This document shows positions 5,776 to 52,938 of a DNA stretch of 64,000 nucleotides, one piece after another (the first letter of the stretch is position 1; each line of letters begins with the position of its first letter). Both the position numbers and the translations under genes were made by a program. A model generated the notes under the pieces. It did no database searches. It had not been told where the DNA came from and saw nothing but the letters and a program-made list of their open reading frames with translations. The DNA lies in NCBI GenBank assembly GCA_050330055.1, contig JBHJOF010000282.1:8769-72768 (forward strand), written 5' to 3'. Source of the stretch: Kiloniellales bacterium (lineage in GTDB: Bacteria > Pseudomonadota > Alphaproteobacteria > Kiloniellales > JAKSDN01).

Positions 5776-5990
5776 GAGACCCCATCCCCCGCTTGCTTGA
5801 GCGCAAAGCCATAGGGCGGGCGGGCTCGCTTGGCAAGTCAGGCGACGATGGCAAGCTTGTGACCCGAAATGCTGCCAGTCCGTTGAGAAGCCGTGAAGCC
5901 CTGGGCCGGAAGTCTAAATGGGCGGCAGGGCATCGAAGGTTTGCGGCCGGTCGTCCCCGGCAGCGCAGTCGAACCGGTGCTGCTGAAGAA

Positions 5991-7762: not shown

Positions 7763-7806
7763 TGCGCCATACGCGCCGAACAATAGAACTCCTAGAGGAG
7801 GTGCCA

Positions 7807-8037
7807 ATGGAAAGTCCCCCGCATAGTGAGATCGAACGGCGAGCCTATGCCATATGGGAAGCAGAGGGGCGGCCGGTCGGACGCGCACTCGAGCACTGGT
7901 TTCGGGCTGAGCACGAGCTGCAACAGAAACAGAAGTCGAAAGCGACATCGGCGCGCGGCAAAGCCACGAAGGCGCCCACTGCGCGGAAGCGCTCGTCCGG
8001 CGCGAGGGCCAAGGTCGGCAGTCAAGGCGAAGGCTGA
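7807..8037 (+). CDS. DUF2934-type small basic protein
   Basis: IERRAYAIWEAEGRPVGRALEHWFRAEHEL matches the DUF2934 signature, followed by a Lys/Ala/Arg-rich tail. A strong SD (GAGGAGG) lies 6 nt before the ATG at 7807. The ORF track's 7762 start is probably too long. Confidence 0.7.
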   Translation: MESPPHSEIERRAYAIWEAEGRPVGRALEHWFRAEHELQQKQKSKATSARGKATKAPTARKRSSGARAKVGSQGEG

Positions 8038-8128
8038 CTTTAAGCATGCAGGATGGCGGCCCGTTTAGCGTCGGCGATCCGACTGTTGACAGTGACGGAT
8101 CGAAGAACAACTATTGTTAAGGCGAAAA

Positions 8129-10197: not shown

Positions 10198-10198
<1 letters not shown>
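8129..10198 (+). CDS. glgE: Alpha-1,4-glucan:maltose-1-phosphate maltosyltransferase
   Basis: About 689 aa. N-terminal RLVIEAVSPEINGGRFPAKA (GlgE domain N), then a GH13 core (VLYLPPIHPIG, FRVDNPHTKP, FLSEAFT). Confidence 0.9.
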
Positions 10199-13512
<3,314 letters not shown>

Positions 13513-13514
13513 GG

Positions 13515-15737
13515 ATGGCTTCACGCGCGACAGCTTCGGCGAACGCCCAGATGCCCGACCCGGCGGAAATCGAGGCGCTGGTCACGGGAGCGCATGGCGA
13601 TCCCTTCAGCATTCTCGGCATGCATGGCGGCGACGACGAACCGCTCACGGTTTGCACCTTCGCGCCACAGGCGCGCAACGTCGAGGTCACGGACCGCAAG
13701 ACCGGGCGCCGGGTCTCAGAGCTGACACGCCTGCACGATGCCGGCTTCTTTGGCGGCACGATTCCGCGACGCAAGAAGCAATTCTCCTATCGTCTCCGTC
13801 TCGTGAATGGAGGCGATGCCAGGGAGATCGAAGACCCCTATCGCTTTCCGCCGATCCTGGGCGAGCTCGACCTGCACCTCATGGGCGAAGGCACACACCG
13901 TCGCCTCTATACCCGCCTCGGCGCGCATCCGACGACGCTCGACGGCGTCGCCGGCGTCTCCTTCGTCGTCTGGGCCCCCAACGCCGCGCGGGTCAGCGTC
14001 GTGGGCGACTTCAACGACTGGGACGGCCGCTGCCACCCCATGCGCAAGCGCCATGAGGGCGGACTCTGGGAGCTCTTCATCCCCGGCCTCGAGCGGGGCG
14101 CGCTCTACAAGTACGAAATCATAGGCGCGGCGGGTCAGCTGCTGCCTCTGAAGGCCGATCCGTTCGCCTTCGAGCAGGAAGCACCGCCTTCGACGGCATC
14201 GAAGGTGCACGGCTTGCTAGAGCATCCCTGGGGCGATGCCGACTGGCTCGCTCAGCGCAGCGAGGCCATCGACACCTCAGCGCCGATCTCGATCTATGAA
14301 GTCCATGCCGGCTCGTGGCGGCGCGGCCAAGATGGCACACCGCTCGACTACGATGGGCTTGCCGAGGCGCTGGTCGCACATGCCCAGGATCTCGGGTTCA
14401 CGCATATCGAGCTCATGCCGATTTCCGAGCATCCCTTCACGGGCTCCTGGGGCTATCAGCCGATCGGGCTCTTCGCGCCGACCAGCCGCTTCGGCTCGCC
14501 CGAGGGCTTCGCGCGCTTCGTCGATCGCTGCCACCAGGCGGGCATCGGCGTGATCGTCGACTGGGTGCCGGCGCACTTTCCCTCAGACGAGCATGGTCTC
14601 GCGCGCTTCGACGGGACCGCGCTCTACGAGCACGAGGACCCGCGGCTCGGTTTCCACAAGGACTGGGACACCCTGATCTACAACTTCGGCCGGCGCGAGG
14701 TGGCCAACTTCCTGCGCGCCAACGCCCTCTTCTGGCTCTCGCATTTCCATGTCGACGCCTTGCGCGTGGACGCCGTCGCCTCGATGCTCTACCTGGACTA
14801 CAGCCGCCAGCCCGGCGAGTGGGTGCCCAACGTGCACGGCGGCAACGAGAACCTCGACGCCATCACCTTCCTGCGCGATACCAATTCAGTGATCCCAGCC
14901 GAGGTTCCCGGCACGCTCTGCATCGCCGAGGAATCCACGGCTTGGCCCAACGTCAGTCGCCCGGTGGAGCAGAACGGGCTCGGCTTCGGCTACAAGTGGA
15001 ACATGGGTTGGATGCACGACACGTTGGAGTTCATGCGCAAGGACCCTGTGCACCGCCGCTATCATCACAACCAGATGACCTTCGGTCTGCACTATGCCTT
15101 CAGCGAGAACTTCGTGCTGCCACTCAGCCACGACGAGGTGGTCTATGGAAAGGGCTCGTTGATCGGCAAGATGCCGGGCGATCAATGGCAGCGCTTCGCC
15201 AATCTGCGTGCCTACTATGCCTTCATGTGGACCCATCCGGGCAAGAAGCTGCTTTTCATGGGCGGTGAGTTTGCCCAGGAGCGTGAATGGAACCACGACG
15301 AAACACTGGACTGGCACCTGACCGATGATCCCAGGCATCACGGGGTGATGCACCTCATCCGCGATCTGAACCGGATCTATCGTGAGCTGCCGGCGCTGCA
15401 CGAGCTGGACTGTGATCCGGAAGGATTCCAGTGGATCGACGCGGGCAACGTCGAGGAGAGCGTGCTCGTCTACCTGCGCAAGGGCCGCAAGGGTGCAGCG
15501 CCTGTGCTGGTCGCGCTCAATTTCACGCCGGTGGTGCGCAAGCACTACCGCATCGGGGTGCCGTGGGGCGGCTACTGGCGCGAGGTCCTGAACACGGATG
15601 CCGCCTACTACGGCGGCTCGAACGTCGGCAATGGCGGCGGCGTCGAGGCCGATCCGGAGCCGTGGCATGGTCAGGAAAGCTCGGTCGAATTGACGCTGCC
15701 GCCGCTCGCGGCGCTCGTCCTTGCGCCGCTAGGCTAG
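13515..15737 (+). CDS. glgB: 1,4-alpha-glucan branching enzyme
   Basis: 740 aa. Motifs: [50 protein letters not shown]. Confidence 0.95.
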
Positions 15738-15748
15738 GAGCCGCGTCT

Positions 15749-17829
<2,081 letters not shown>

Positions 17830-17833
<4 letters not shown>

Positions 17834-19656
17834 CCGGCCGTTTCGCCTATGAGAAGCGCTGGGGCGCCGAGCTGCTTGAGGGCAAGGATGTGCGCTTCAG
17901 GCTATGGGCGCCCGGCCTGAGCGACCTGCAGCTCGTGCGAGGCGATGGCGGGGAGGTCCTGCCGATGGCGCAAGATACTGACGGCTGGTTCGAGACGGTG
18001 ACCGATCAGATCGCACCGGGCGATGCCTATGCCTTCCGCCTGCCTGACGGCAAGCTTGTGCCCGATCCGGCAGCGCGGGCGCAGGCGGACAGCGTGCACG
18101 GCGCCTCGCTGCTCGTCGATCCTCGCGCCTACGAATGGCGCATGGACTCCTGGCAGGGGCGGCCCTGGGAGGAGGCCGTCATCTATGAGCTCCACACCGG
18201 CACCTTCACCGAGGCCGGCACTTTCGCGGGTGTTGCTGCGCGGCTCGACCACCTCGCCGAGACCGGCATCACGGCGATCGAGCTGATGCCGGTGGCGCAG
18301 TTCGGCGGTGATCGCGGCTGGGGCTATGACGGAGTTCTGCTCTATGCGCCGCACCGCGCCTATGGCGGACATGAGGGGCTGAAGGCTCTGGTCGATGCGG
18401 CGCACGCGCGCGGACTCATGGTCCTGCTTGACGTGGTCTATAACCACTTCGGCCCGGATGGCAACTACCTCCATCTCTATGCACCCGAATTCTTCGATCC
18501 CAGCCACGCGACGCCCTGGGGCGCCGCCATCGCCTACGGCCGTCCGGCGGTGCGCGACTTCGTCGTCGACAACGCGCTGTACTGGCTCGAGGAGTACCGC
18601 CTCGACGGGCTGCGCCTGGACGCGATCAACGAGATTCGCGATTCCTCGCCGGAGCACATCCTGGAGACCACGGCAAAGACGGTCCATACGCGTATCACCG
18701 ACCGGCAGGTCCACTTGACCACGGAGGACCACCGCAACGTCACCCATCTGCATGAGCGCGACGCGGCGGGCGCGCCCAGGCTCTATACGGCCGAGTGGAA
18801 CGACGACTTCCACCACGTCGCGCACGTCATCGCCACTGGTGAGACCGAAGGCTACTACGTCGACTATGCTGCCGACCGGCTGGCCAAGCTGGCCCGCGCG
18901 CTGGCCGAGGGCTATGTCTATCAGGGCGAAGCCTCGCAGTTCTGGGGCGAGGACTCGCACGGCGTACCGTGCGCGCACCTGCCGCCAACGGCCTTCGTCA
19001 ACTTCATCCAAAACCACGACCAGATCGGCAACCGGGCCTTCAACGAGCGGCTGACCGACCTGGTGCCGCAGCGCGTCGTCGAGGCGCTGACGGCGGTTCT
19101 CCTTCTAGGCCCGCAGATTCCCTTGCTGTTCATGGGCGAGGAGTGGGGAGAGATCAATGCCTTCGGCTACTTCACCGACTTTGACGGCGAGCTGGCCGAT
19201 GCAGTGCGCGAGGGCCGCCGGCGGGAGTTCTCCCGCTTCGCGCGTTTCGCCGACGAAGCCAACCGGGCGAAGATTCCCGATCCGAATGCGGAGAGCCCCT
19301 TCCTGTCGTCCCGGCTCGACTGGACGCACCTGGACGGTCCGGACGGCCGCGCGCGTCATGCGCTTGTCACCAGGCTGCTCCACATACGGAGGGAGGAGAT
19401 CGTGCCGCGTCTCAAGAGTATCGGCGGCCATTCCGGTACGTCGACCATCGGTGATGGCGATGCGATCAGCGTACGCTGGCGCCTCGGGGACGGCGCGAAG
19501 CTGACGCTGATGGCCAATCTCGGCGACCAGCCAAGCCCGGCACCGACGAAGCCCGGCGGTCGCGTGCTCTACGAGAGCGCGCCTGGCATCGCTGAGCGCG
19601 TAGGCTCGGCGCCGCTGCCGGGCTGGTCGGTAGCGGTCTTGCTGGATGATAGCTGA
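17830..19656 (+). CDS. treZ: Malto-oligosyltrehalose trehalohydrolase
   Basis: 608 aa. Motifs: VRFRLWAPG, IYELHTGTF, VLLDVVYNHFGPDGNY, GLRLDAI. ATGA overlap with the glgX stop. Confidence 0.9.
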
Positions 19657-19668
19657 GCGGTCCAAGGG

Positions 19669-21554
19669 ATGAAGAAATCGCCGCTCGACCGGCTGTCGGA
19701 AGCCTACGGTCTGCAGCTTTCGTACCTGAGCACGACAAAGGAAAGGCAGATGCCGTCCGCTGCGGCAAAGCTTGCGGTGCTACGGGCGATGTCGGTTTCC
19801 ACCGAGACTGACGAGGACATCGCGCGGAGCCTGGCCGAGGCGCCGGCGCCGATCGATGGGCGGATTGCCGCGCCACAGGGCATCCGCTGCTACTTGCCCG
19901 ACTGGCTGGTCGAGGCGCGCGCCTGGGGCGTCACCTGCCAGCTCTACGGGCTGCGCTCGTCGCGCAACCACGGTATCGGCGACTTCGAGGATCTCGCTTG
20001 TCTCGCCGAGAAGGTGGCGGCGATTTTGTCGGCGTCAACCCGCTCCACGCTCTTTTCACGGCGGATCCCGAGCGCTGCAGCCCCTTTTCGCCGTCGAATC
20101 GCAGCGTCCTGAACCCGCTCTATATTGCGCTCGATCACATCCCGGGCATCGCTGTCCCGTTTGCGGGCGAGGATGTCGCGCGAGCCCGTTTGCAGGCGTC
20201 GGACAAGGTCGACTATCAAGGGGTGGCGGCGCTCAAGCTAGGCAGGCTGCGGACGCACTGGCGGCGGATTCATGAGGAGCCGAGGCGTTGTAAAGAGGCT
20301 GCGCCAGAGTCCTTCGAGCGCTTTGTCGAGGAAGGTGGCGCGGCACTCCGCGATCATGCCCTGTTCGAGGCCCTGTCGCACCACATGGTCGCCCAGGGCC
20401 ACAGCGCCGGCTGGCAGGGCTGGCCCGAGGCCTACCGCAGTCCCAACAGCGCAGCGGTGCAGCGCTTCGCCGCCGAGCAGGCGGACGAAGTCCGCTTTCA
20501 CCTTTGGTTGCAGTGGCTTGCCGATGTCCAGCTCCAGGCCGCAGCCGAGCGTGCGCGCGCGGCGGGCATGCGGATCGGACTCTATCTCGACCTCGCCGTT
20601 GGTGCCGCGCCGGACGGTTCGGCCACCTGGAGCGATCCGGAACTCGTCGTCCCGGGGGCGAACATCGGCGCGCCGCCGGACGCGTTTTTCGCCGGCGGCC
20701 AGAACTGGGGGCTTGCGCCGCTGTCGCCGGCCGCGCTCCGGGCGCGGCAGCTCGCGCCCTATCGCCGCGTTCTGGGACGCACCACCCGGCATGCTGGGGC
20801 GATCCGGCTCGATCATGCCATGGGCCTGCATCGCCTGTTCTGGATCCCCCATGGCATGACGGCGAAGCAGGGTTGCTACGTGCTCTATCCCCTGGCGGAC
20901 ATGTTGCAGGCGCTGGCCGATATATCGGCGGCTCAGCGCGCGATCGTCGTCGGCGAGGATCTCGGCACGGTGCCGAAGGGCTTCCGCGAGCTCATGCAGT
21001 CCGTCAACATGCTGTCCTACCGCGTGCTCTATTTCGAATGGGTGCGTGGAAGCCTCCGCGCCGCCGCGTCCTATCGACGCAATGCCTTTGTCACCGCTTC
21101 GACCCACGATCTGCCGCCGCTGGCGTCCTGGTGGGCGGGCGCGGACATCGCTCTCTTTCGAGAGCTGGGATTGCTCGACTCCGCCACCGCCGAGCAACGC
21201 CGGCAGCAGCGCGCGCATGACCGCCGGGCGCTGATCACGCGATTGCGCAGGGACCTGCCAGGGCGCTCCCTGCCCGCCTCGCTCAAAGCGGACAGTGCCG
21301 ACGAAAAGCGTGGGCTGACGCAGGACGTGGCTGTCGCGATTCAGGCTTTCCTCGCGCGGACGCCATCGTGGCTGCTCGGCCTCCAGTTCGAAGACCTCTG
21401 CGGCGCTGAGGCGCCGGTCAATATCCCCGGTACCTGGAAGGAGTATCCGAACTGGCAGCTGCGCGCTCCTGCCTCGATCGAGGAGGCCGTGGAAAGTGCG
21501 CTGTGGACCGCCAGCATCCAAGCTGTCACCAATGAGCGGCCCAGATCAGGATGA
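19669..21554 (+). pseudogene. malQ: 4-alpha-glucanotransferase (amylomaltase) interrupted by a frameshift near 20009-20024
   Basis: The N-terminal 115 aa (...WGVTCQLYGLRSSRNHGIGDFEDLACLAEKVAA) read in frame 1. The conserved continuation GGDFVGVNPLHALF...SPFSPSNR... reads in frame 0 from the same G-rich stretch AAGGTGGCGGCGATTTTGTC. Combined length is about 628 aa, as expected for MalQ. Confidence 0.8.
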
Positions 21555-31191: not shown

Positions 31192-31401
31192 TTAGGCGAG
31201 CTCGATCGTACCGACAGCAATCTTGCCGCTGCGCGCGTCGTTCTGCGTATCGAACTTCACCTTCTGGCCTTCACGCAGCCCGGAGATGCCGGCGCGCTCC
31301 AGCGCCGTGGCATGGACGAAGACGTCCTTCTGGCCGTTGTCCGGCTGGATGAAGCCGTAGCCGCGCTGGTCGTTGTAGAACTTTACGGTGCCCGTGTTCA
31401 T
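31192..31401 (-). CDS. cspA: Cold-shock protein (CspA family)
   Basis: The 69-aa MNTGTVKFYNDQRGYGFIQPDNGQKDVFVHATALE... carries RNP-1 (GYGFI) and RNP-2 (VFVH) motifs. The upstream extension in the ORF track is not CSD-like. Confidence 0.95.
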   Translation of the reverse strand: MNTGTVKFYNDQRGYGFIQPDNGQKDVFVHATALERAGISGLREGQKVKFDTQNDARSGKIAVGTIELA

Positions 31402-31596
31402 GGAAAATCCTTTCACTAACGGTCTGCACAGGGGCCTTGGCGCACGGGAATCATGGCCGCGGGCCCGGTTTCGTTGATTTTGGTGAGAAAGTCTGAAGCG
31501 TGCGCGCCAGTCAGTGACAAGGCGAGTAGGCCCAGTCATTCGGCCAATATCGACCCCATCGACATAGGCGCTGGGCCAGGCAATTGCAAGCGCAAA

Positions 31597-44548: not shown

Positions 44549-45529
44549 ATGCCCGAGCTGATGGTCGCCGCCGAGAGCTGGCCGATTCGCGGCAGCTTCG
44601 CCATCTCGCGCGGCAGCAAGACCACGGCCGAGGTGGTGGTCGTCGAGCTGTCCGAGCAGGGCCTGGCGGGGCGCGGCGAGTGCGTGCCCTATGCCCGCTA
44701 CGGCGAGACCGTCGAGGGCGTGATCGCCGCCATCGAGGGCCTGCGCGGCCGACTGAAGGGCGGTCTCGACCGCCTCGGCCTGCAGGCGGCGCTGCCGGCC
44801 GGCGCGGCGCGCAACGCGCTCGACTGCGCCTTCTGGGACCTCGAGGCCAAGCGCGCCGGGCACCGGGTCTGGGACCTGCTCGGCCTGCCCCAGCCCAAGC
44901 CCACGACCACGGCCTACACGCTGTCGCTGGGCGACGTCGAAAGCATGGCGGCCGCCGCGGCGCGCGAGGCCAATCGCCCGCTGCTCAAGCTCAAGCTCTC
45001 CGGGCCGCAGGACCTGGCCCGCGTCGCCGCGGTGCGGCAGAGCGCGCCCAACGCCCGTTTGGTGGTCGACGCCAACGAGGGCTGGGCCATCGCCGACTAC
45101 GCCGAGCTGGCGCCCAAGCTGGCGGTGCTCGGCGTCGAGATGATCGAGCAGCCGTTGCCCGCCGGCAGCGATGCGGCGCTCGCCCGCATGCAGCGCCCGG
45201 TCAAGCTCTGCGCCGACGAATCCTGTCACGACGCCCAGACCCTGGCCGGGCTGGTCGGGCGCTACGACATGGTCAACATCAAGCTCGACAAGGCCGGCGG
45301 CCTGACCGAGGCGCTGCGCCTCAAGGCGGCGGCCGAGGCAGCCGGCTTCGGCATCATGGTCGGCTGCATGATCGGCACCTCTCTGGCCATGGCGCCGGCC
45401 CTGCTGGTGGCGCAGGGTGCAGCGGTGGTCGACCTCGATGGCCCGCTGCTGCTGGAGCGCGATCGCCCCGACGGCCTGCGCTACGACGACAGCCGCGTCC
45501 ATCCGCCCGAGCCGGCGCTGTGGGGCTAA
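44549..45529 (+). CDS. dgcA: Enolase-superfamily dipeptide epimerase / N-acyl amino acid racemase (DgcA-like)
   Basis: KLKLSG (KxK), VDANEGW, IEQPL, CADES and NIKLDKAGG are the catalytic and metal-ligand motifs of the L-Ala-D/L-Glu epimerase group. It starts 5 nt after the DUF1611 stop. Confidence 0.75.
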   Translation: MPELMVAAESWPIRGSFAISRGSKTTAEVVVVELSEQGLAGRGECVPYARYGETVEGVIAAIEGLRGRLKGGLDRLGLQAALPAGAARNALDCAFWDLEAKRAGHRVWDLLGLPQPKPTTTAYTLSLGDVESMAAAAAREANRPLLKLKLSGPQDLARVAAVRQSAPNARLVVDANEGWAIADYAELAPKLAVLGVEMIEQPLPAGSDAALARMQRPVKLCADESCHDAQTLAGLVGRYDMVNIKLDKAGGLTEALRLKAAAEAAGFGIMVGCMIGTSLAMAPALLVAQGAAVVDLDGPLLLERDRPDGLRYDDSRVHPPEPALWG

Positions 45530-45633
45530 GTCGCGAACGCATGGCGGGAAGTCGCGAGCGGACGGGACTCTGAGCCAAGCTTCCAAACGATGGCAACTTG
45601 CGCGGCCTGTTCCGGTAGCGTAGTCTAAGAATG

Positions 45634-45780
45634 ACGCAACCGCATCGGGCGCTCCGTCAACACGATCGTGCCTTTCAGGCGTATCGCCACGCACTACGAG
45701 AAATACGCCTCAAACGACCTAGCCATGCTCAAGGGCGCCGCATTCCGCAACTGGCGCCGCGGGAGTGAGTTCATGGCCTA
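45634..45780 (+). mobile_element. IS5-family (IS427/IS1031-like) transposase C-terminal remnant
   Basis: Translation is RNRIGRSVNTIVPFRRIATHYEKYASNDLAMLKGAAFRNWRRGSEFMA*. It matches the conserved IS5-family C-terminus (RNxVERxFNxLKxFRRIATRYDKLAxNxLAxxxLAxIRxWL). Only about 48 codons are present, preceded by an in-frame stop. Confidence 0.7.
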
Positions 45781-46047
45781 GGGGCTGGGGTACCCCAGCC
45801 TCGTCAGAAGCAAGCTTGCTTCCGCTGTTTCAACGCTCCGCCCAGGATAAACCGCTTCCCGGTGATGATGTAGTGCGGCGCGCCATCGTGCGTTGTGGCC
45901 GGACGAAGGTGTCCGCGAGGGACACGCTCGTTGCTGCCGTGCGGCAGAGGAAGCAGTTGTGATTGTGAAACGTCGAAAGTCTTGCGCAGTGATTCAGCAA
46001 TCGGTCTGAAGACTTGCGCTGGGCGGTTCGGAGATGGGAGAGCCCGC

Positions 46048-47046
46048 ATGACCATTGAAACGAGCCTCCGCCGCGAGCTGGCGCATTTTCAGGCCCCGAT
46101 ACCGCGCAAGAGCCTGTCCCAGGTCGCGACCTCGTTCGGCGGCTTCTTCGCCACCTGTGTGGCGATGCATACCGTCATCGACCTGTCCTACTGGCTTGCG
46201 CTCGCGCTCACGCCGCTGGCCGCCGGCTTCCTGGTGCGGATCTTCATTATCCAGCATGACTGTGGACATTTCTCGTTCTTCCGCTCGCGCCGTGCAAACG
46301 ACGTCATCGGGTTCGCTTGCAGCCTTCTCACGCTGACGCCCTATGCGTCCTGGCGCCGGCAGCACGCGGGACATCACGGCGTTTGGAACGATCTCGACCG
46401 CCGGCAAAGCGGTGTGGATATCTATTCCTCCTGCCTGACCGTCGCTGAATACCGGGCCTTGAGCTTGGGGAGGCGATGGTGGTGCCGCTTGACGCGGCAT
46501 CCGCTCGTGACCAACATCCTGCTGCCTCCCCTGATCTTTACTTTGCTTTATCGCCTGCCGTTCGACATGCCGAAATCCTGGCGTTACGAGCGGCGCGTGG
46601 TGCACCTGACCAGCCTCGCGCTCGTCGCGACCCTGGCAAGCCTCGGCTTGCTGCTCGGCTACGATCGCGTGGCCGCCATCCAACTGCCGGTACTGGTGCT
46701 CGCGGCCGTCATCGGCGTCTGGCTGTTCTCGGTGCAGCACCGCGGCGAAGCGATACGGTGGTTCCGTCACGACGTATGGGACCCGCGCTCGGCGGCGCTG
46801 CAGGGCTCGACCTACCTGCGCCTGCCGGCGATCCTGCAATGGTTCACCGGCAATATTGGGTTTCATCACGTGCATCACCTGAATCCCCGCGTGCCGAACT
46901 ATCGGCTCCGGGAATGCCATGAGTTGATCGCGGCTCACTGCACCGTTCCGCAATTGTCTTTCCGCGACGGAGTGCGGGCCCTGCGCTTCGTCCTGTGGGA
47001 CGAGGCCCGCGGCCGAATGGTCACATTCCGCGAGGCCACGGCGTGA
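46048..47046 (+). CDS. Membrane fatty-acid desaturase family protein
   Basis: Three His boxes (HDCGH, HAGHHG, HHVHH) with intervening hydrophobic segments. ATG at 46048. Confidence 0.85.
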   Translation: MTIETSLRRELAHFQAPIPRKSLSQVATSFGGFFATCVAMHTVIDLSYWLALALTPLAAGFLVRIFIIQHDCGHFSFFRSRRANDVIGFACSLLTLTPYASWRRQHAGHHGVWNDLDRRQSGVDIYSSCLTVAEYRALSLGRRWWCRLTRHPLVTNILLPPLIFTLLYRLPFDMPKSWRYERRVVHLTSLALVATLASLGLLLGYDRVAAIQLPVLVLAAVIGVWLFSVQHRGEAIRWFRHDVWDPRSAALQGSTYLRLPAILQWFTGNIGFHHVHHLNPRVPNYRLRECHELIAAHCTVPQLSFRDGVRALRFVLWDEARGRMVTFREATA

Positions 47047-48113
47047 AGCTGTTCGAGTGCCAGTGCTGCGGCCAGCTGCTCTACTTCGAGAACACGCGGT
47101 GCGAGCGCTGCGGACACATTCTGGGATATCTGCCCGATCGAGTGACCCTGAGCGCGCTCACGCCCGCGGGCGGCGCGCGCTGGCGTCCCTTGGTCGCGCC
47201 CGATGAGCAATTCCGCTTCTGTGCCAATGCCGTCCACGACTCTTGCAACTGGCTGGTGCCGGCCGACGGCCCGGACGCATTCTGCCGCGCCTGCCGGCTC
47301 AACCGGACGATACCCAACCTCGACGCGCCCGCGAACCTCCTGCTCTGGCAGAGGCTGGAAGCCGCCAAGCACCGTCTCGTCTATGGACTGCTGCGCCTCG
47401 GCCTGCCCCTGGTCAGCAAGTTCGAGGACGCCGAAAGGGGGCTCGCCTTCGACTTCCTCGCCGACTCCGGGGCGACGTTCCAGGAAGGCCCGCAGGTCGT
47501 CACGGGTCATGCCCGGGGGCTGATCACCATCGACATCGCCGAGGCCGACGACGCCGAGCGGGAGCGCCATCGCCGCGACATGGCGGAGCCCTATCGCACT
47601 CTTCTTGGCCATTTCCGCCACGAGATCGGCCACCACTACTGGGAGCGGCTCGTGCGGGACGGATTGTGGCACGGGGCCTTCCGCGAGCTGTTCGGTGACG
47701 AGCGTCGCGACTACGGCAGCGCCCTGGAGGCCTACTACGCGAATGGCCCCCAGCCCGACTGGCGCGAGCTTTTCGTCAGCGGCTACGCCGGCGCTCATCC
47801 CTGGGAAGACTACGCCGAGACCTGGGCGCACTATCTGCACATCGTCGATACCCTGGAGACTGCGGACGCCTTCGGCCTGCGCATCCACCCAAAGGCCGGC
47901 CGCGATCCCGCGCTCGCCATGGAGATCGATTTCGATCCCTACCGGCAAGGCGACTTTGATGCGCTGATAGGTGTATGGCTACCGCTCACCTATGCAGTGA
48001 ACAGCCTGAACCACAGCATGGGCCAACCGGACCTCTATCCCTTCGTCCTGGCGCCGACGGTCATAGGGAAGCTACGCTTCGTCCACGGCCTCATCCACCG
48101 CAGTGGCGACTAG
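47043..48113 (+). CDS. Zinc-ribbon plus putative HExxH zinc-metallopeptidase-like protein (DUF2248/Peptidase_Mx type)
   Basis: N-terminal CQCCGQLLYFENTRCERCG zinc ribbon and an HEIGH motif in GHFRHEIGHHYW. The GTG start overlaps the desaturase stop (GTGA at 47043-47046). Confidence 0.7.
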   Translation: MKLFECQCCGQLLYFENTRCERCGHILGYLPDRVTLSALTPAGGARWRPLVAPDEQFRFCANAVHDSCNWLVPADGPDAFCRACRLNRTIPNLDAPANLLLWQRLEAAKHRLVYGLLRLGLPLVSKFEDAERGLAFDFLADSGATFQEGPQVVTGHARGLITIDIAEADDAERERHRRDMAEPYRTLLGHFRHEIGHHYWERLVRDGLWHGAFRELFGDERRDYGSALEAYYANGPQPDWRELFVSGYAGAHPWEDYAETWAHYLHIVDTLETADAFGLRIHPKAGRDPALAMEIDFDPYRQGDFDALIGVWLPLTYAVNSLNHSMGQPDLYPFVLAPTVIGKLRFVHGLIHRSGD

Positions 48114-48147
48114 GAGCAGGCCGCATGCCGTATGAATCGCCGGCCGG

Positions 48148-48393
48148 TCAAGCAAGGTCTGGATCGACGAACAGACTGTCCGGCGGATCGGCCTCGTTTG
48201 GCGCCAACCGGGAATCGTAGCGGTACCGTGTGACGCAGTAGGGGCAGAGGATCGCATCCTCAAGGCCCATGTTGAGATAGACGTGCGGATGATCGTGCGG
48301 CGGGGACACGCCGATGCAGTTGAATTCTCGCACGCCGATGCGAATCTCCGGGACCGCTCGGTCGTTTCGAAACTTCGGATAGTGGCTTGCCAT
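48148..48393 (-). CDS. zf-CHCC-type zinc-finger small protein
   Basis: 81 aa. EFNCIGVSPPHDHPHVYLNMG...ILCPYCVTRYRY matches the C..HP..(n)..CPYC pattern. A longer 150-aa form (start at 48600) cannot be excluded. Confidence 0.7.
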   Translation of the reverse strand: MASHYPKFRNDRAVPEIRIGVREFNCIGVSPPHDHPHVYLNMGLEDAILCPYCVTRYRYDSRLAPNEADPPDSLFVDPDLA

Positions 48394-48765
48394 CTTGGTC
48401 GCTGCGGAACGGCTCGACGAAGTCAGTTCCGACGCAGTGGCAGAGTCTTGGACGTCCCTTTCGGATACTGCCCAGCTGGCGGGCAGTGATCCGGCGCTTG
48501 CGGCGATAGCGACGCCGGCTCGAGGGTGGCGACGTAGAGCACTACCCTCCGTCTCCCAGGACTCGATCGCGTTCATGTCGAGCTGCGAATCGGCAGCCAA
48601 AGGGTGATCTGCGAAGCGGCGGGATGCGGCCCGATTTCGAACGCTGACTGAAGTTGCTATGCAATAGCTCCGAGTTCGGCAACTGACACTGACCTCGGCA
48701 AGGTTCGAAATCGGCGCCGTAGAACGCCCGGCGTCCAGCTGCCCTGAACGACCAGGGCCAGACGG

Positions 48766-49116
48766 CTAGAATTGGGTCGCCAGCTGCTCCATGCACGCGC
48801 TTGCAACCTGACGATTGGGATCGCTTGCACCCGGCATCGTCGCCCAGCCGGTTTCCATGAGCATGTCGCTGCGCTGGTAGTTGCTGGCGCCTTCCAACTG
48901 GGCAAGCTTCTGCGCGAGCTGCGGGTCCTGGCTCGACTGCTCGATGCAGATCGGTACCAAGGCGGAGACGACCTCGAGCCGCGCCTGTGCGGACGCCATT
49001 TGCTTGGCCGTACCGCCGGTCACCCATCCGCCCCACGAGAAGCCGACTATGGCGAGTGCGATGGCACCCACAACGGCACCATAGAGGGCAGGCTTTAGCC
49101 ATTCGGGGGTGTTCAT
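48766..49116 (-). CDS. Small membrane-anchored protein of unknown function
   Basis: 116 aa. One N-terminal TM segment (ALYGAVVGAIALAIVGFSWGGW). An AT-rich promoter island lies directly upstream. Confidence 0.6.
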   Translation of the reverse strand: MNTPEWLKPALYGAVVGAIALAIVGFSWGGWVTGGTAKQMASAQARLEVVSALVPICIEQSSQDPQLAQKLAQLEGASNYQRSDMLMETGWATMPGASDPNRQVASACMEQLATQF

Positions 49117-49163
49117 GTGCGTTTCCTCAATCTAGGGAGAAACCATCTCTCCCTTTAATAATT

Positions 49164-49200
49164 AGCAATATAGCAGAAAATAAACATATAGTATATTGCT
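49164..49200. promoter_or_regulatory. Perfect 9-bp inverted repeat (operator candidate) in an AT-rich island
   Basis: AGCAATATA (49164-49172) and TATATTGCT (49192-49200) are separated by 19 bp. They lie 48-84 bp upstream of the ATG at 49116. The surrounding 120 bp is about 32% GC by hand count. Confidence 0.3.
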
Positions 49201-49414
49201 TTCTCGGCCAAAATAATTATCTGTAGATTTTTTGGATAAGTTGTTGACAGCGGTGGCTTATTTAATGACGTACACGGAACGATTACATCAAAGTGCGGGC
49301 GGACTCCCTTGCCTGCACGCGCATCGGGCCCCGGCCATCAAGGCTGAGGCACCGATTTCATCGCTCCCACAATGGCTGCACCGTTCAGGCGGGTCTTGAG
49401 AACGGCCGGACTTT

Positions 49415-49678
49415 CTAGAAGTCTTCCGCAGCCAGGAGGTAGGCGTCCTTGTGGGCGCGCGTATAGACCTTGCGGGCGGCTTCATGGATGCGATCGCGAG
49501 CGGCATCGAAGGCCTCGAGAAAGCTCGCTTCCGCATTCCTAGTCTGCGGGTTCAGCTTGTAGAGCGCACCGACCTCGACGAAAAATGAAACCTCCAGCGC
49601 GCTGTCGTAGCCCCAAAAGTGGACAAGACATCTCCTAGCGTCGTAGCTCCGGCTCCCGTTCGGAAAACTGAGTGTCAT
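49415..49678 (-). CDS. DUF1488-like small protein
   Basis: 87 aa. MTLSFPNGSRSYDARRCLVHFWGYDSALEVSFFVEVGAL resembles the DUF1488 N-terminal signature as I recall it. Confidence 0.6.
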   Translation of the reverse strand: MTLSFPNGSRSYDARRCLVHFWGYDSALEVSFFVEVGALYKLNPQTRNAEASFLEAFDAARDRIHEAARKVYTRAHKDAYLLAAEDF

Positions 49679-49725
49679 GGTTGAAATTCCCAACTGCTTC
49701 CGCCTGGAGTGGGATTCGCTTACGG

Positions 49726-49902
49726 CTATCGCCCGAACCGCTTGTTGCCGACTTTCTTGGCCGGCTGCGACGCCTTCCGCGCTGTTGCGGCAGGTGGCTT
49801 GGCGCCGCATCGGGGACAGGCGACGACGGCCCTATTCAAGTCATAGTATTTGGTCGCGCACTCTGGACAGACATGCTTCGATCCGCGGTCTGCTATGTTC
49901 AT
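49726..49902 (-). CDS. TIGR02300 (FYDLN)-type zinc-ribbon protein, short form; not in the ORF track
   Basis: My hand translation gives MNIADRGSKHVCPECATKYYDLNRAVVACPRCGAKPPAATARKASQPAKKVGNKRFGR* (58 aa). It has the CPxC...YYDLNR...CPRCG signature. It is below the 60-aa track cut-off. Confidence 0.6.
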   Translation of the reverse strand: MNIADRGSKHVCPECATKYYDLNRAVVACPRCGAKPPAATARKASQPAKKVGNKRFGR

Positions 49903-49934
49903 ATCTTTGGATTCCTCGATGGCTGTGTTTAGCT

Positions 49935-50135
49935 CTATCGCCTGGCGGCCTTGGCAGGGTGGGCCCTAAGCGGCGTTCCGTTTCGCCATGTGGTCGACCG
50001 TTTGCAGCTCGGACAAATCCGCTCGCCGCACCACTGACTCGGAAACGTGGATTTGCACCTAAGACAAGGGCGCAGTTTAGGACCATCTCGGGGCGGCTGA
50101 GGATTCGGTCCATCTGTCGCTGGGGAGGTCCTCAT
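49935..50135 (-). CDS. Small Cys-rich zinc-ribbon-like protein
   Basis: 66 aa, MRTSPATDGPNPQPPRDGPKLRPCLRCKSTFPSQWCGERICPSCKRST... (CxxC-x13-CxxC). The ATG overlaps the stop of the upstream gene (ATGA at 50132-50135). Confidence 0.5.
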   Translation of the reverse strand: MRTSPATDGPNPQPPRDGPKLRPCLRCKSTFPSQWCGERICPSCKRSTTWRNGTPLRAHPAKAARR

Positions 50136-50443
50136 GAATCCTCCTCCCATCCGTCGCAAAGCCGGGTTAGATCGTCGAGCGCATGTGCGATAAGCCTCTT
50201 CCGGCGCGGATCCTGAGCTTCCGGTGTGGCGGCATAGAGCTCTATGAGATACTGCGCCTTGGCAGCGGCCTCTGGCCAGGTCTCGGCCGGCGCGGCAAGG
50301 AGAAGCTTCTCTAGCTCCTCCTGACGACGCCACAAATCCGCCTGTTGAGCCTGAAACTGTTGGAGGCGCTGGCGGCGGATCTCTGTCGCTTTCTGGGCGG
50401 CCATGCCGCGATGCTCGTCGAGATCGACCGGGTCGTCCGTCAT
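50132..50443 (-). CDS. Hypothetical helical, coiled-coil-like protein
   Basis: 103 aa, rich in Q/E/R/L heptad-like sequence (RRQRLQQFQAQQADLWRRQEELEKLLL). Translationally coupled to the downstream Cys-rich ORF. Confidence 0.5.
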   Translation of the reverse strand: MTDDPVDLDEHRGMAAQKATEIRRQRLQQFQAQQADLWRRQEELEKLLLAAPAETWPEAAAKAQYLIELYAATPEAQDPRRKRLIAHALDDLTRLCDGWEEDS

Positions 50444-50494
50444 GGTCTCATGCCTTCGGTTGGCATTGCCGAATCCGGCTCGACTCAGACCGCG

Positions 50495-50761
50495 TCAAGT
50501 GAGCCGCACCGCGGCTCCGAGCCTCGCGATCCGGCAAAGGGCGTTCTTGATGTTTTCGAGGCGGGTGGGTTGATGTCTCCGCGATGCCCGTTCGGCAACT
50601 CTCAGCAGGTCGCCTGTTAGGCGCTCGATTTCGCTCCGCCTAATCCAGGAAGCGTAAGGAACGGTATCGTTGAATGCCTTTAGGCTTGCGGCCGTGCGGC
50701 CGCGTAGCTCTTTCAAAGCTTGCCGAATCTCGCCATGTTCGGATTGATTCTTGCAGGTCAC
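50495..50761 (-). CDS. Hypothetical protein
   Basis: 88-aa ORF co-oriented with its neighbours. No motif recognised. Confidence 0.4.
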   Translation of the reverse strand: MTCKNQSEHGEIRQALKELRGRTAASLKAFNDTVPYASWIRRSEIERLTGDLLRVAERASRRHQPTRLENIKNALCRIARLGAAVRLT

Positions 50762-50814
50762 TTCGACACCTCATTGACTGCGATATGTGACGACCGTCCT
50801 AAACGCGTTCCCGT

Positions 50815-51063
50815 TCAGTTATCTTGGCCACTACTCTCCTTTTCCCATCTGCTCGCGAGCTCATCGATGATTTGCGCGACCGTTAGCGGTCGACCGCCTG
50901 CGCCGGCTTGCTCTTTGCCCCACAGTGCGAGCTTCTGGTAGGTGGCGGTCGGTAGCATTACGGTAGCTTGCCCCGCATCGCGCTGAGGCGGTGCGAGCCA
51001 GACCGTGCCGGCGACCATGGCGGCCAAAATGATCAGCACGGTTAGGGGCGGTGATAGGCGCAT
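50815..51063 (-). CDS. Hypothetical small membrane-anchored protein
   Basis: 82 aa. N-terminal TM segment (LTVLIILAAMVAGTVWL). Good SD (AAAGGAG) 7 nt upstream of the ATG. Confidence 0.5.
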   Translation of the reverse strand: MRLSPPLTVLIILAAMVAGTVWLAPPQRDAGQATVMLPTATYQKLALWGKEQAGAGGRPLTVAQIIDELASRWEKESSGQDN

Positions 51064-51183
51064 CCGGGACTCCTTTGAGGAAAGTGAAGCTGCAGATCTC
51101 GGCCGCGCGTCATCTTTCCCACTGCAGGTCTTTCAACCATCTTCGCGCCGGAGGGGCCGCGTGGCCGGACTCTGTCCAGCCTC

Positions 51184-51981
51184 CTAGGGCAGAGTGCAGC
51201 TATCCTCTTGTTTGTGGTAAGGCCGGTTACAGTCCCAGCCGTTTCCGGAATAGTCGAGGTGAGCGTTCTCCGGAACCTTTATGGGAGCGCAAGCTTCACT
51301 AACCGCTTGGTAGCCGCGGCTACATTTCCATCCAGGTCCATAGGAAGCGTCCACGAAATAGCCGTTCTCGGGCACCTGGACGGCCACGCAAGCCTCATCA
51401 ATTGACCGGTAGCCACGACTGCATTTCCATCCGGGGCCGTACGATGCCTCCACGACGTATCCGTTTGCGGGCACCAGGATGGCGACACAGCCATCCTTGA
51501 TTGCTCGATAGCCTCGATCGCACTCCCAGCCAGGCCCATATGGAGTTTCTGACAAGTAACCGTTTCTGGGTACATTGATGGCAATGCAGGCCTCGTCGAT
51601 CTGCCGATAGCCTCGAGCGCATTCCCACCTGTCGCCGGAGGACGTCAGATAGGCGTTGGAGGGCACTTCGACGACGGTGCAGGTCTCACCGCTATCCCGA
51701 TACCCGTGTCCGCACTCCCAACCGCGTCCGTAGGACGTGTTGGTCGCGTACGCATTTGCGGGCAGCAAGATCGCTGCGCAGGCTCCCTTGACCACTCGAT
51801 AGCCAGGATTGCACTCCCAGCCGCTCCCGAAACTCTTCGCGCGCGCATTCTCGGGCATCTCGGCCTCGGGCATCTCGGCGGAGCCGGCCTGGGCGCCAGC
51901 CACGCTGGAAGCAGCGACCAGAAGCGCCAGAAGAACAGGGGTGAGAACTGAAACAAGGCGCGGTCGTCGCATGCTGTTCAT
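51184..51981 (-). CDS. Secreted cysteine-rich tandem-repeat protein (about 7 copies of a 30-aa G-x-G-W-x-C-x-x-G-Y-R...C...V-P-x-N-x-Y unit)
   Basis: Signal peptide MNSMRRPRLVSVLTPVLLALLVAASSVAGAQA. Repeats include SYGRGWECGHGYRDSGETCTVVEVPSNAYLTSS, PYGPGWECDRGYRAIKDGCVAILVPANGYVVEA and SYGPGWKCSRGYRSIDEACVAVQVPENGYFVDA. Each unit has two Cys. Confidence 0.75.
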   Translation of the reverse strand: MNSMRRPRLVSVLTPVLLALLVAASSVAGAQAGSAEMPEAEMPENARAKSFGSGWECNPGYRVVKGACAAILLPANAYATNTSYGRGWECGHGYRDSGETCTVVEVPSNAYLTSSGDRWECARGYRQIDEACIAINVPRNGYLSETPYGPGWECDRGYRAIKDGCVAILVPANGYVVEASYGPGWKCSRGYRSIDEACVAVQVPENGYFVDASYGPGWKCSRGYQAVSEACAPIKVPENAHLDYSGNGWDCNRPYHKQEDSCTLP

Positions 51982-52189
51982 GAATGGCACCTTGTCGTGA
52001 CTGCCGAGCACCGCAGCGAGCTTGCTGGTCGAAACACCCACCAAGGCTAAGGGGTGGGTCTCAAAGGACGCCTCGCATCGTCAGTCAATGGCCCCCATCG
52101 CGCGTGCTGCTTTCGCGTTGGCGCAGTTTAGGGCTCTGTTTATGCGGTGGCCGCGTTCGCTGCGGTTATCCAGGTGACAACACTTCATC

Positions 52190-52357
52190 TCAATATCGAG
52201 AGCGACTTCGAGGCGGAGCCTTGTCGGACTGTGCGGCTGGCCGATCGATTGCCGGTATGTCCTCGGAGTCCTCCTCGGGCGTGTCCGGGCGCGGCGGGAA
52301 AGTATGGGATGCGTTGGATGCATAATCTCTCCGCCAGCCGAATTTTTTGTCGGCCAT
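52190..52357 (-). CDS. Possible 55-aa acidic/proline-rich small ORF
   Basis: MADKKFGWRRDYASNASHTFPPRPDTPEEDSEDIPAIDRPAAQSDKAPPRSRSRY. GAGG lies about 9 nt upstream of the ATG. It sits immediately downstream of the AT-rich island. Moderate GC3. Confidence 0.3.
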   Translation of the reverse strand: MADKKFGWRRDYASNASHTFPPRPDTPEEDSEDIPAIDRPAAQSDKAPPRSRSRY

Positions 52358-52608
52358 ATGAAATACCTCAGAGTTTTGCAGCAATGATTTGCTACTTATG
52401 AAAAAGATAAGCCTATATGGAGTATTTTTCAATGGCTTTTAAGGAATATTTTTTGAAGAGATCTTCGTAATACTAAAAGTTCTTTGTGCAGTACACAGTT
52501 ATATTTATTTTTATTTCTGCAGTACAGATTTGCAATGTGGAGTATGGCCCAAGAATTTGCGCGCATCAGTGCTCCAACGCAGCGCTATGAGCCTAAGGTG
52601 ATAGCCCG

Positions 52609-52938
52609 TCAGTCGGCCGGCCGCTTGCGCCGCCGGCCATCGCGCTTCGGGCGGACGTGGCGGCGCAGGCGGTCTTCCGGATAGCTGGCCGCCTCGCGCA
52701 GCATCTCGATGACGCGGCCGGCCGCGCCCTGCGGCAGCGGGCCCTCCGCCAGGCCATGGGCGGCCAGCAGGCGCTGCGCCGCCGCCGCCGGGTCGCGGCC
52801 CTCGCCGAGCCTGAGCGTCCAGGTCAGGATGATGTCCTCGGCCGGTCCGGCGAAATCGGCGCCGGCGGCGATCACGTCGTGGATCAGCCCGCCCGGATCG
52901 TCCTCGGAGTGGTGCGGCGAGACGTACTTGATGGCCAT
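52609..52938 (-). CDS. Hypothetical protein (109 aa)
   Basis: High-GC3 ORF, MAIKYVSPHHSEDDPGGLIHDVIAAGADF..., 68 nt downstream of the co-oriented methyltransferase gene. Confidence 0.55.
   Translation of the reverse strand: MAIKYVSPHHSEDDPGGLIHDVIAAGADFAGPAEDIILTWTLRLGEGRDPAAAAQRLLAAHGLAEGPLPQGAAGRVIEMLREAASYPEDRLRRHVRPKRDGRRRKRPAD

Follow-up and report, generated by a model that had tools for sequence, protein, structure and literature searches.

A lower-GC accessory islet with a conserved string of small-protein genes in a Kiloniellales bacterium

A conserved string of small genes in a lower-GC islet

We analyze here a 64,000-nt stretch of contig JBHJOF010000282.1 (positions 8,769 to 72,768 of the forward strand; assembly GCA_050330055.1) from a Kiloniellales bacterium, a member of an alphaproteobacterial order placed by NCBI under Rhodospirillales, and refer to this whole stretch as the window. 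It contains a ~7-kb tract of lower GC (guanine plus cytosine) content, the islet, at ~45.6-52.6 kb, which carries genes for a fatty-acid desaturase and a Peptidase_Mx metallopeptidase, and a co-oriented minus-strand array of hyd55, g9, g8, g7, g6, g5, g4 and g3, then g2, then g1. A first-pass annotation of this DNA had listed eight short co-oriented minus-strand open reading frames (ORFs) between 48148 and 51063, g1 to g8 here, and all eight are found where it placed them. Codon-level comparison with orthologues reveals purifying selection on each of g1-g9, with ratios of nonsynonymous to synonymous substitution (dN/dS) of 0.06-0.52, and the eight ORFs are real genes; g9 and hyd55 belong to the same gene string. 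This string is a real conserved module, not a chance collection, and the islet that carries it is accessory.

In 500-nt windows the GC content is 0.53-0.64 across ~45500-52700, compared with 0.67-0.75 in the flanks. GC at third codon positions (GC3) is 0.61-0.79 for g1-g9 versus 0.83-0.94 for the flanking genes, with 0.44-0.55 GC in the spacers and promoter regions of the islet; because GC3 of the coding regions is also depressed, the drop is not confined to AT-rich spacers. Sliding GC and GC3 thus bear out the AT-richer islet proposed earlier, but the dip is wider than the 48148-51063 interval to which it had been assigned. The first 12 kb and the last 4 kb of the window likewise reach just 0.60-0.65 GC; the dip is therefore a local one and has counterparts elsewhere in the window.

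The evolutionary core of the array is formed by two translationally coupled genes, an acidic three-helix protein (g6) and a basic, treble-clef Cys4 finger (g5). The first, g6 (50132-50443, minus strand), encodes a 103-residue acidic, all-helical protein (isoelectric point, pI, 4.8; net charge -7) that anchors the array and is its most conserved member; the second, g5 (49935-50135, minus strand), encodes a 66-residue basic protein (pI 11.2, net charge +11) in which we read a Cys4 zinc finger of the form C-x2-C-x13-C-x2-C. The g6 stop codon and the g5 start codon overlap in an ATGA at 50135-50132 that is preceded by a Shine-Dalgarno sequence, GGAGGAGG. This coupling, already pointed out at 50132-50135 in the first-pass annotation, is plainly read in the sequence, and the overlap recurs in most orthologous loci. 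In a neighbour census of 71 non-redundant g6 loci, which covers 8 kb around g6 and yields lower bounds, many contigs being truncated, g5 is co-oriented with g6 in 35. The conserved overlap and the complementary charges suggest that g6 and g5 would form a stoichiometric complex.

The g6 family comprises 5,573 clusters at 90% identity (E ≤ 1e-3), of which the best 120 are 77-100% identical and lack a Pfam domain. Selection on g6 is strong (dN/dS 0.06-0.15), and an AlphaFold2 model with a mean predicted local distance difference test score (pLDDT) of 85 places helices at residues 5-50, 56-71 and 79-102. Searches of the PDB by sequence, by profile and with Foldseek, run on g6, g5 and g3, return nothing below E 0.01 for any of the three.

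An exhaustive HMMER search collects 549 clusters at 50% identity for g5, with invariant residues R22, C24, C27, F31, S33, C41, C44 and W50 and the signature R-x-C-L-R-C-x3-F-x-S-x-W-x-G-E-R-I-C-x2-C-K-x4-W-R-x-G. In the AlphaFold2 model (pLDDT 74) the first CxxC lies in a β-hairpin knuckle and the second at the start of a short helix, a predicted fold that we read as treble-clef-like. We find no Pfam family for g5; its weak fold matches, all with E above 0.7, are mostly to small ribosomal or nucleic-acid-binding zinc fingers, and it matches one unannotated PHROG, phrog_13335 (E 4.7e-6). A word-index homologue search with g5 gives zero matches, probably because g5 is seldom called as a gene: it is uncalled in several public gene sets, and gene callers sometimes also skip g4. 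In a few family members (P0226, P0167, P0263) a g5-type finger is found C-terminal to a larger protein with a GcrA-like or helix-turn-helix-like N-terminal domain, as in P0226, where it follows a GcrA DNA-binding domain (PF07750, E 1.4e-8).

A third protein, X120, is coupled to one or the other member of this pair in plasmids. On plasmid p195_1 of Bradyrhizobium sp. 195 (L070, 4744-5306) X120 is coupled to g6 by a 4-nt overlap, and on pP97_c of Phaeobacter porticola (L071, 3408-4150) an X120-like protein and g5 are coupled through a stop-start codon overlap. Because X120 is coupled to g6 in one plasmid and to g5 in another, the arrangement suggests that X120, g6 and g5 may be interchangeable partners.

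Downstream of g5, g4 (49726-49902, minus strand) encodes a 58-residue FYDLN-type Cys4 ribbon with a basic tail (net charge +10, pI 10.1), which scores 49.9 bits against PF09538 (cut-off 23.9) and narrowly passes TIGR02300 (42.7, cut-off 41.65) with the motif YYDLN. The earlier assignment to the FYDLN/TIGR02300 type therefore holds by both cut-offs, but for the N-terminal ribbon only: g4 aligns to positions 1-49 of 105 in PF09538 and 4-46 of 129 in TIGR02300, and a short basic tail stands in place of the acidic C-terminal tail of the family. The next gene, g3 (49415-49678, minus strand; 87 residues; dN/dS 0.12-0.20), scores 58.6 bits against PF07369 (cut-off 22) over profile positions 1-75 of 82, and is by this match a full-length DUF1488 member. 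Encoded by g2 (48766-49116, minus strand) is a 116-residue protein with a single N-terminal transmembrane helix (residues ~10-28; KD19 maximum 1.94 at residue 10) and a soluble domain; g2 is 76-80% identical in Kiloniellaceae, has a dN/dS of 0.10-0.26 and matches no family in Pfam, NCBIfam or PHROG.

At the downstream end, g1 (48148-48393, minus strand) encodes an 81-residue zf-CHCC zinc-finger protein that scores 40.1 bits against PF10276 (cut-off 27) and covers profile positions 2-37 of 37. Its ligands, C26 (NCIG), the HDHPH histidines and C50-x2-C53 (CPYC), make a Cys3His site. Thus, of three Cys4 modules reported earlier, those of g4 and g5 are Cys4 and that of g1 is not, although the zf-CHCC identity of g1, like the DUF1488 identity of g3, is upheld by Pfam scores above cut-off. 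Found with the array in L013, L014 and L065, g1 has a dN/dS of 0.16-0.29, and no codon-position GC signal is found in an upstream extension of its ORF.

Upstream of g6 lie g7 (50495-50761, minus strand), with a GTG start and a basic product of 88 residues (pI 11.05) that has no match in Pfam, NCBIfam or the annotated PHROGs, and g8 (50815-51063, minus strand), whose 82-residue product carries an N-terminal transmembrane or signal-anchor segment (residues ~7-25; KD19 maximum 2.19 at residue 7) and likewise has no family in these three collections. Orthologues of g7, 51-61% identical and with a dN/dS of 0.23-0.40, stand directly upstream of g6 in L003, L008, L010, L012, L018 and L033; those of g8, the least conserved member (dN/dS 0.25-0.52), are found in L003, L008, L018 and L062. 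With one N-terminal hydrophobic segment each, g2 and g8 are the two single-pass membrane proteins of the original description.

Beyond g8, g9 (51184-51981, minus strand) is predicted to encode a secreted Cys-repeat protein of ~265 residues, in which a signal peptide, from which we place the start at M22 of the ORF, is followed by seven ~33-residue repeats of the form GWxCxxGYRx5Cx4VPxNxY with two Cys each. The repeats correspond to 99-nt DNA repeat families, D1 and D2; g9 has a dN/dS of 0.16-0.23 and no Pfam match. Just past the signal peptide, at 51850-51879, two copies of CTCGGGCATCTCGGC form a perfect 15-nt tandem duplication that encodes a repeated MPEAE/MPE motif. The string opens with hyd55 (52190-52357, minus strand), a 55-residue hydrophilic ORF (MADKKFGW...) with a tblastn E of 8.6e-4 against the 'hyd49' cluster. 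At this place relatives carry a 45-50-residue Lys/Pro/Ala-rich protein (MSFKKFS...APAPKS) behind a CCATAT -10 box, and hyd55 is tentatively a weak homologue of this array-opening protein.

Scanning species-representative genomes with g6 gives 65 loci, nearly all in Kiloniellaceae, other Rhodospirillales-type alphaproteobacteria, Rhodobacterales or Hyphomicrobiales. A comparison across Rhizobiales, as first proposed, would be misdirected, the source and nearly all relatives being Kiloniellaceae, other Rhodospirillales-type or Rhodobacterales. In the census, the neighbours of g6 are g5 in 35 of the 71 loci, X120 in 26, g2 in 25, g9 in 20 (always directly upstream of g6 and co-oriented), g4 in 16, g3 in 15, hyd49 in 10, hflC in 9 and g7 in 6, and all lie on the g6 strand except one g2 match and one g4 match. 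The homologues clearly co-occur and are not scattered singly, the outcome that the first-pass annotation had named as one that would speak against its proposal of an uncharacterised small-protein module; the g6-g5 pair in 35/71 loci speaks for that proposal, as does the full g6 to g2 order in at least seven species-level genomes.

From tblastn and ORF clustering we obtain a consensus co-oriented array, [hyd49 > X120 >] [g9 >] [g8 > g7 >] g6 > g5 > g4 > g3 > g2, and the at least seven species-level genomes with the complete g6-g5-g4-g3-g2 order are L003, L006, L007, L008, L019, L020 (Pelagibius litoralis DSM 21314; NZ_JAAQPH010000010.1, 127109-147414) and L021. Metagenome contig L086 repeats nearly the whole islet, with a g9-like gene, g6, FYDLN, DUF1488, g2, a convergent Peptidase_Mx gene, a cold-shock gene and a fatty-acid desaturase. 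Other lineages carry other small partners downstream of g6: one clade has s35, s48 and s49, and another has s52. The identity of g6 is 77-85% in Kiloniellaceae, ~70% in Geminicoccaceae and 49-59% in Rhodobacterales and Bradyrhizobium.

Arrays with g6 72-85% identical to the window protein also occur in metagenome-assembled genomes (MAGs) labelled Gammaproteobacteria, Flavobacteriales, Candidatus Cybelea and Blastocatellia (L004, L012, L015, L030; P0057). These are probably binning errors for a mobile segment or one of atypical composition; the alternative is real transfer between phyla.

Expression signals and proposed role

A predicted array promoter region lies at 52380-52432 on the minus strand, with TTGAAA, a 17-nt spacer and TATCTT (52432-52404), followed by an inverted repeat, AGCAAATCATTGCT (52393-52380). 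Alignment of 15 orthologous upstream regions reveals a shared AT-rich stretch, a TTGAAA -35 box, a -10 box 17 nt further on and then an inverted repeat, GGCAAATCATTGCC, whose motif GCAAATCATTGC occurs once per locus, in the array promoter region only. RNAalifold gives little structural support for this repeat as an RNA hairpin, so that a DNA operator is an equally likely candidate. In most relatives the -10 box reads CCATAT, fitting the sigma-32 pattern, and a scan of the g6-coding strand of the g6 loci, ~1.6 Mb in all, gives six strict matches to TTGAA-N14-17-CCATNT, every one of them upstream of array genes (L012, L017, L025, L028, L039, L052).

Separations from hyd55 through g3 are at most 120 nt, or the genes overlap. 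The intergenic region upstream of g2 is 298 nt long, with 47% GC, a CTATAT-type -10 box and a conserved GTTATCAG motif. In the 5' untranslated region of g2, alignment of 12 orthologous upstream regions points to a hairpin, GGGAGAGAUGGUUUCUCCC (49135-49153, minus strand), ~10 nt upstream of the g2 Shine-Dalgarno sequence; RNAalifold predicts an 8-bp stem in 8 sequences, with modest covariation, one pair being changed on both sides and several on one side. This hairpin, GGGAGA...UCUCCC, has a Shine-Dalgarno-like 5' arm, and its 3' arm could base-pair with the true Shine-Dalgarno sequence. Further conserved in the upstream region of g2 (49135-49260) is a motif pair, GTTATCAG...CAGATAA. We find no intrinsic terminator on the coding strand and no Rfam match at E ≤ 1 over 45-54 kb. 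Taken together, these signals suggest that the array is transcribed as two or three units from AT-rich promoter regions, with a separate promoter for g2.

The neighbours of g6 in other genomes offer a lead to function. In nine loci, two of them on plasmids, a co-oriented hflC lies directly upstream of g6, and on the two annotated plasmids, where hflK is also present, the hflC-g6 gap is 19 nt. Other neighbours within 8 kb of g6 are cspA-type cold-shock-domain genes (13 loci), groES/EL (10), transglutaminase-like genes (9), rpsU (6), fatty-acid desaturase genes (5) and small heat-shock protein genes of the HSP20 type (3). In the Burkholderia lxa stress locus a DUF1488 protein lies between UspA and a small heat-shock protein and rises with both. 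The window itself has a CspA-type cold-shock-domain gene at 31201-31524 (minus strand), ~17 kb from the islet, that is 53-59% identical to the csp genes adjoining g6 in other genomes.

Taken as a whole, these data are best explained, at about an even chance in our judgement, by a mobile accessory islet that carries a small-protein operon with a g6-g5 core and a role in membrane or proteostasis stress or in temperature-shift stress. The parts of this explanation differ in strength: conserved order, coupling, the reality of the genes and accessory status are well supported, and the link to membrane, proteostasis or temperature-shift stress is weakly supported, by gene context. A stress or nucleic-acid-binding role for the module is plausible on this circumstantial basis. 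In the scheme that we envisage, g6, g5, X120, g2, g9, the FYDLN-like and DUF1488 proteins and hyd49 form a small-protein guild, often joined by a second hflK-hflC copy and transglutaminase-like proteins. This guild moves as a block between alphaproteobacterial chromosomes and plasmids and, lacking mobility genes of its own, probably uses flanking insertion sequence (IS) elements or recombination. The array proteins might act, for example, as modulators or clients of the HflKC-FtsH membrane protease, and nucleic acid or the transcription machinery may be the binding target of the basic zinc fingers.

A more specific version goes considerably further, and we regard it as a long shot. It proposes that these guild proteins, with g6, g5 and X120 at the centre, are an undescribed, horizontally mobile, alphaproteobacteria-wide small-protein system that is under sigma-32-type control, cooperates with FtsH and with an HflK-HflC (SPFH) cage of its own, and tunes membrane protein quality control in temperature or membrane-fluidity stress; acidic g6 would restrain g5, and released g5 would bind nucleic acid or RNA polymerase.

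Several observations weigh against a stress-linked mobile operon. Neither hflKC nor X120 is part of the array in the window. Most of the groESL, csp and rpsU neighbours are on the strand opposite to g6; they are few and their lineages are related, so that their enrichment could reflect shared ancestry or the general clustering of strongly expressed genes. The -10 box of the window, TATCTT, is sigma-70-like and not CCATNT, which makes RpoH control a lead for the family and not a finding for the window. Matches to an EcfG-type promoter, GGAAC-N16-17-CGTT, number three in the window, no more than expected by chance, and none falls within 45-53 kb. No homology points to a biochemical activity, there is no PDB relative by sequence or fold, and g2, g5-g9, X120 and hyd49 have no function-bearing match in Pfam, NCBIfam, PHROGs or PADLOC, the single unannotated PHROG for g5 aside. 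Complex formation by g6 and g5, the operon structure and the promoters are themselves predictions from sequence. Nor is there an integrase in or beside the islet, a tRNA or tmRNA gene in the window, or a convincing flanking direct or inverted repeat that would mark a route of mobility.

The same basic proteins could instead be ribosome- or RNA-associated stress factors, with g4, g5, g7 and their partners acting as alternative or accessory ribosome-binding proteins or as co-factors of low-temperature RNA chaperones and not in membrane or proteostasis stress. With pI values of 10.1-11.2 and net charges of +9 to +11, g5, g4 and g7 do resemble small ribosomal zinc-ribbon proteins, and the weak fold matches of g5 are mostly to ribosomal or nucleic-acid-binding fingers, but all of these have E above 0.7 and we find no above-threshold homology to ribosomal protein families. 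The gene context is similarly divided, since rpsU (S21) lies near g6 in 6 loci and a cold-shock-domain gene in 13, but on the strand of g6 in just 0/6 and 4/13 of these, respectively. A DEAD-box helicase lies within the IS3-bracketed segment of L068 described below, and rimK follows g6 on a Leisingera plasmid; HflKC, the transmembrane proteins g2 and g8 and the secreted g9, however, indicate the envelope. We consider this alternative unlikely, if the most durable of those examined here, and retain a membrane, proteostasis or temperature-shift stress role as the preferred reading.

Accessory status and mobility

The array flanks differ in nearly every locus. In metagenome contig L074, which is syntenic with the window, the flanking proteins are 71-85% identical to those of the window and the backbone order of methyltransferase, g10 and dipeptide epimerase is kept; one adenylate-cyclase-like gene occupies the site of the 7-kb islet, and the fatty-acid desaturase is also absent. 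The backbone spot at which the islet sits is variable. The L074 gene at this site (4725-5981) encodes 418 residues and is class III adenylate cyclase-like by reading of its translation only, and L074 has an extra 735-residue gene between the methyltransferase and g10.

Array GC is below that of the surroundings in 15 of the 19 loci with enough flank. We find g6 on six large alphaproteobacterial plasmids and g5 on 14 plasmids, and two MAGs carry two different arrays each (L010 and L013; L017 and L026). Among the plasmid carriers is pPZ02 of Paracoccus zhejiangensis J6. In L068 (the same as L014), an alphaproteobacterial contig of 3.2 Mb, ~10 kb that includes the array (7146-20120) is enclosed by an IS3-family element present in two inverted copies. 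The bracketed content is a g9-like gene, g6, g5, DUF1488, zf-CHCC, a DEAD-box helicase, a cold-shock protein, DUF1993 and a hydrolase, a layout that resembles a composite transposon.

The left edge of the islet in the window carries an IS scar. As the first-pass annotation had recognized, this is an IS5 remnant: at 45668-45778 (plus strand), 37 codons and a stop encode a peptide, VPFRRIATHYEKYASNDLAMLKGAAFRNWRRGSEFMA, that corresponds to an IS5/IS427-family transposase C-terminus. A tblastn search aligns it with the C-terminal ends of transposases annotated as IS5 or IS427 on 41 plasmids (best E 2e-3), with 51-62% identity among the matches listed. The left boundary has no blastn match among plasmids, and the boundary ORFs have no Pfam match.

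Between this scar and g1 lie the two plus-strand genes of the islet. The first (46048-47046) encodes a membrane fatty-acid desaturase (PF00487, E 2.9e-35; GC3 0.81), and a desaturase gene is found within 8 kb of g6 in five loci (L037, L050, L062, L072, L086). The second (47043-48113), convergent with g1, encodes a putative metallopeptidase with a Zn-ribbon and a Peptidase_Mx domain (PF15887, E 3e-107; PF10005, E 1e-33); its start (356 residues) is taken from the gene call in L001, and it is a convergent array neighbour in L013, L021, L025 and L086.

These observations bear on whether the array is, instead, a vertically inherited core feature of Kiloniellaceae, with a low GC content that comes from AT-rich promoters and short genes and an islet-like look that comes from local rearrangement. 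The identity of g6 declines roughly with taxonomic distance, the array is below its flanks in GC in most genomes, as an intrinsic property would be, and mobility genes and att-like repeats are lacking, all as this explanation would have it. But flanks that differ in nearly every locus and a syntenic site without the array, in L074, do not fit a core feature; GC3 is depressed within coding regions, beyond the spacers; and plasmid copies, two copies per MAG and IS elements at the edges speak for movement. We therefore judge vertical inheritance as a core feature to be improbable.

Far less probable is that the islet is the remnant of a prophage, of an integrative and conjugative element (ICE) or of a plasmid leading region, or a toxin-antitoxin or anti-phage defence islet. 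Such regions typically show small co-oriented genes of no known function, lower GC and an IS scar; g5 matches phrog_13335, and some arrays are on conjugative plasmids. Neither g6 nor g5 has a tblastn match in 50,697 phage records, however, g6 has none in IMG/VR, and no member has a PADLOC family except for one weak match of g4 to a Cas12f ribbon; there is no integrase, relaxase or tRNA. Nor does very slow evolution of g6 (dN/dS 0.06-0.15) resemble that of toxin-antitoxin or defence genes, and on plasmids the genes next to the array are not those of transfer but hflKC, transglutaminase-like genes, rimK and a desaturase. A phage or ICE derivation, raised in the first-pass annotation, is thus contradicted by the lack of phage, IMG/VR and PADLOC matches, of an integrase or tRNA and of flanking repeats.

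The least credible reading is that unrelated small genes, some of them spurious, came together by chance, or that the string is an integron-like cassette array. The member families are indeed unrelated, several members have no family, and g5 and occasionally g4 are missed by gene callers. Yet each ORF evolves under purifying selection, and the genes keep their order and shared orientation across many genomes; intI is absent, and with spacers of 32-53 nt and one overlapping pair no space remains for attC.

We return, then, to a mobile accessory islet with a g6-g5 core, of which the functional reading is weak and the islet itself solid. Most array members lack a curated family, including the 103-residue g6 (more than 5,000 clusters) and the zinc finger g5 (~550 clusters), and conserved order, coupling and strong purifying selection show that these are working genes, which pass as a group between the chromosomes and the plasmids of alphaproteobacteria from the sea and from soil. 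The islet provides an entry point into the 'dark matter' of bacterial small proteins: its genes are defined, one carrier, Pelagibius litoralis DSM 21314, is in culture, and the stress hypothesis can be put to the test. The frequency with which g5-type genes go uncalled reveals a systematic annotation gap. The analysis overturns nothing already known and would not surprise a specialist.

Comparison with known systems

We find no described system that the array matches, and literature mentions of DUF1488, TIGR02300/FYDLN, zf-CHCC and Peptidase_Mx are incidental only; individual members can nonetheless be set beside known families. With the zf-CHCC/NDUFS6-type family (PF10276), g1 shares the whole 37-position domain and the C...H...CxxC ligand pattern, but it lies in an accessory lower-GC islet among unrelated small genes and not near nuo genes. 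PdNUMM is a supernumerary complex I subunit of alphaproteobacteria. We take this protein to belong to the zf-CHCC/NDUFS6-type family. The N-terminal CxxC...YYDLN...CxxC ribbon of TIGR02300/FYDLN_acid proteins is shared by g4, whereas that family has a long acidic C-terminal region (profiles of 105-129 positions) and g4 ends after 58 residues in a basic tail. For DUF1488 (PF07369; PDB 2gpi, Shew3726; BCAM0277 of the Burkholderia cenocepacia lxa locus), g3 is likewise found among stress-type neighbours, but the neighbours differ, being UspA, a small heat-shock protein and a BON protein in Burkholderia, and g6, g5 and FYDLN in the window.

The finger R-x-C-L-R-C...F-x-S-x-W-x-G-[ED]-R-I-C-x2-C is common to g5 and to GcrA-like regulators such as P0226; g5, in contrast, stands alone, without a DNA-binding domain, and the fusion is rare among the best 150 g5 matches. 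Chromosomal integron cassette arrays resemble the islet in their small co-oriented ORFs and atypical composition, and differ from it in having intI and attC-sized spacers and in lacking a conserved order.

Small-protein modulators of FtsH exist, lambda CIII being one example. With its long helix g6, and with their single-pass topology g2 and g8, could be compared with such modulators, but they have no sequence similarity to CIII or to others, and the likeness is one of gene neighbourhood only. With hflK-hflC (SPFH) operons, the array shares the placement of g6 downstream of a co-oriented hflC in nine related loci, from which the array in the window, having no hflKC, differs. The islet is best described as an accessory genomic islet with an operon of small stress-type proteins, largely from unnamed families.

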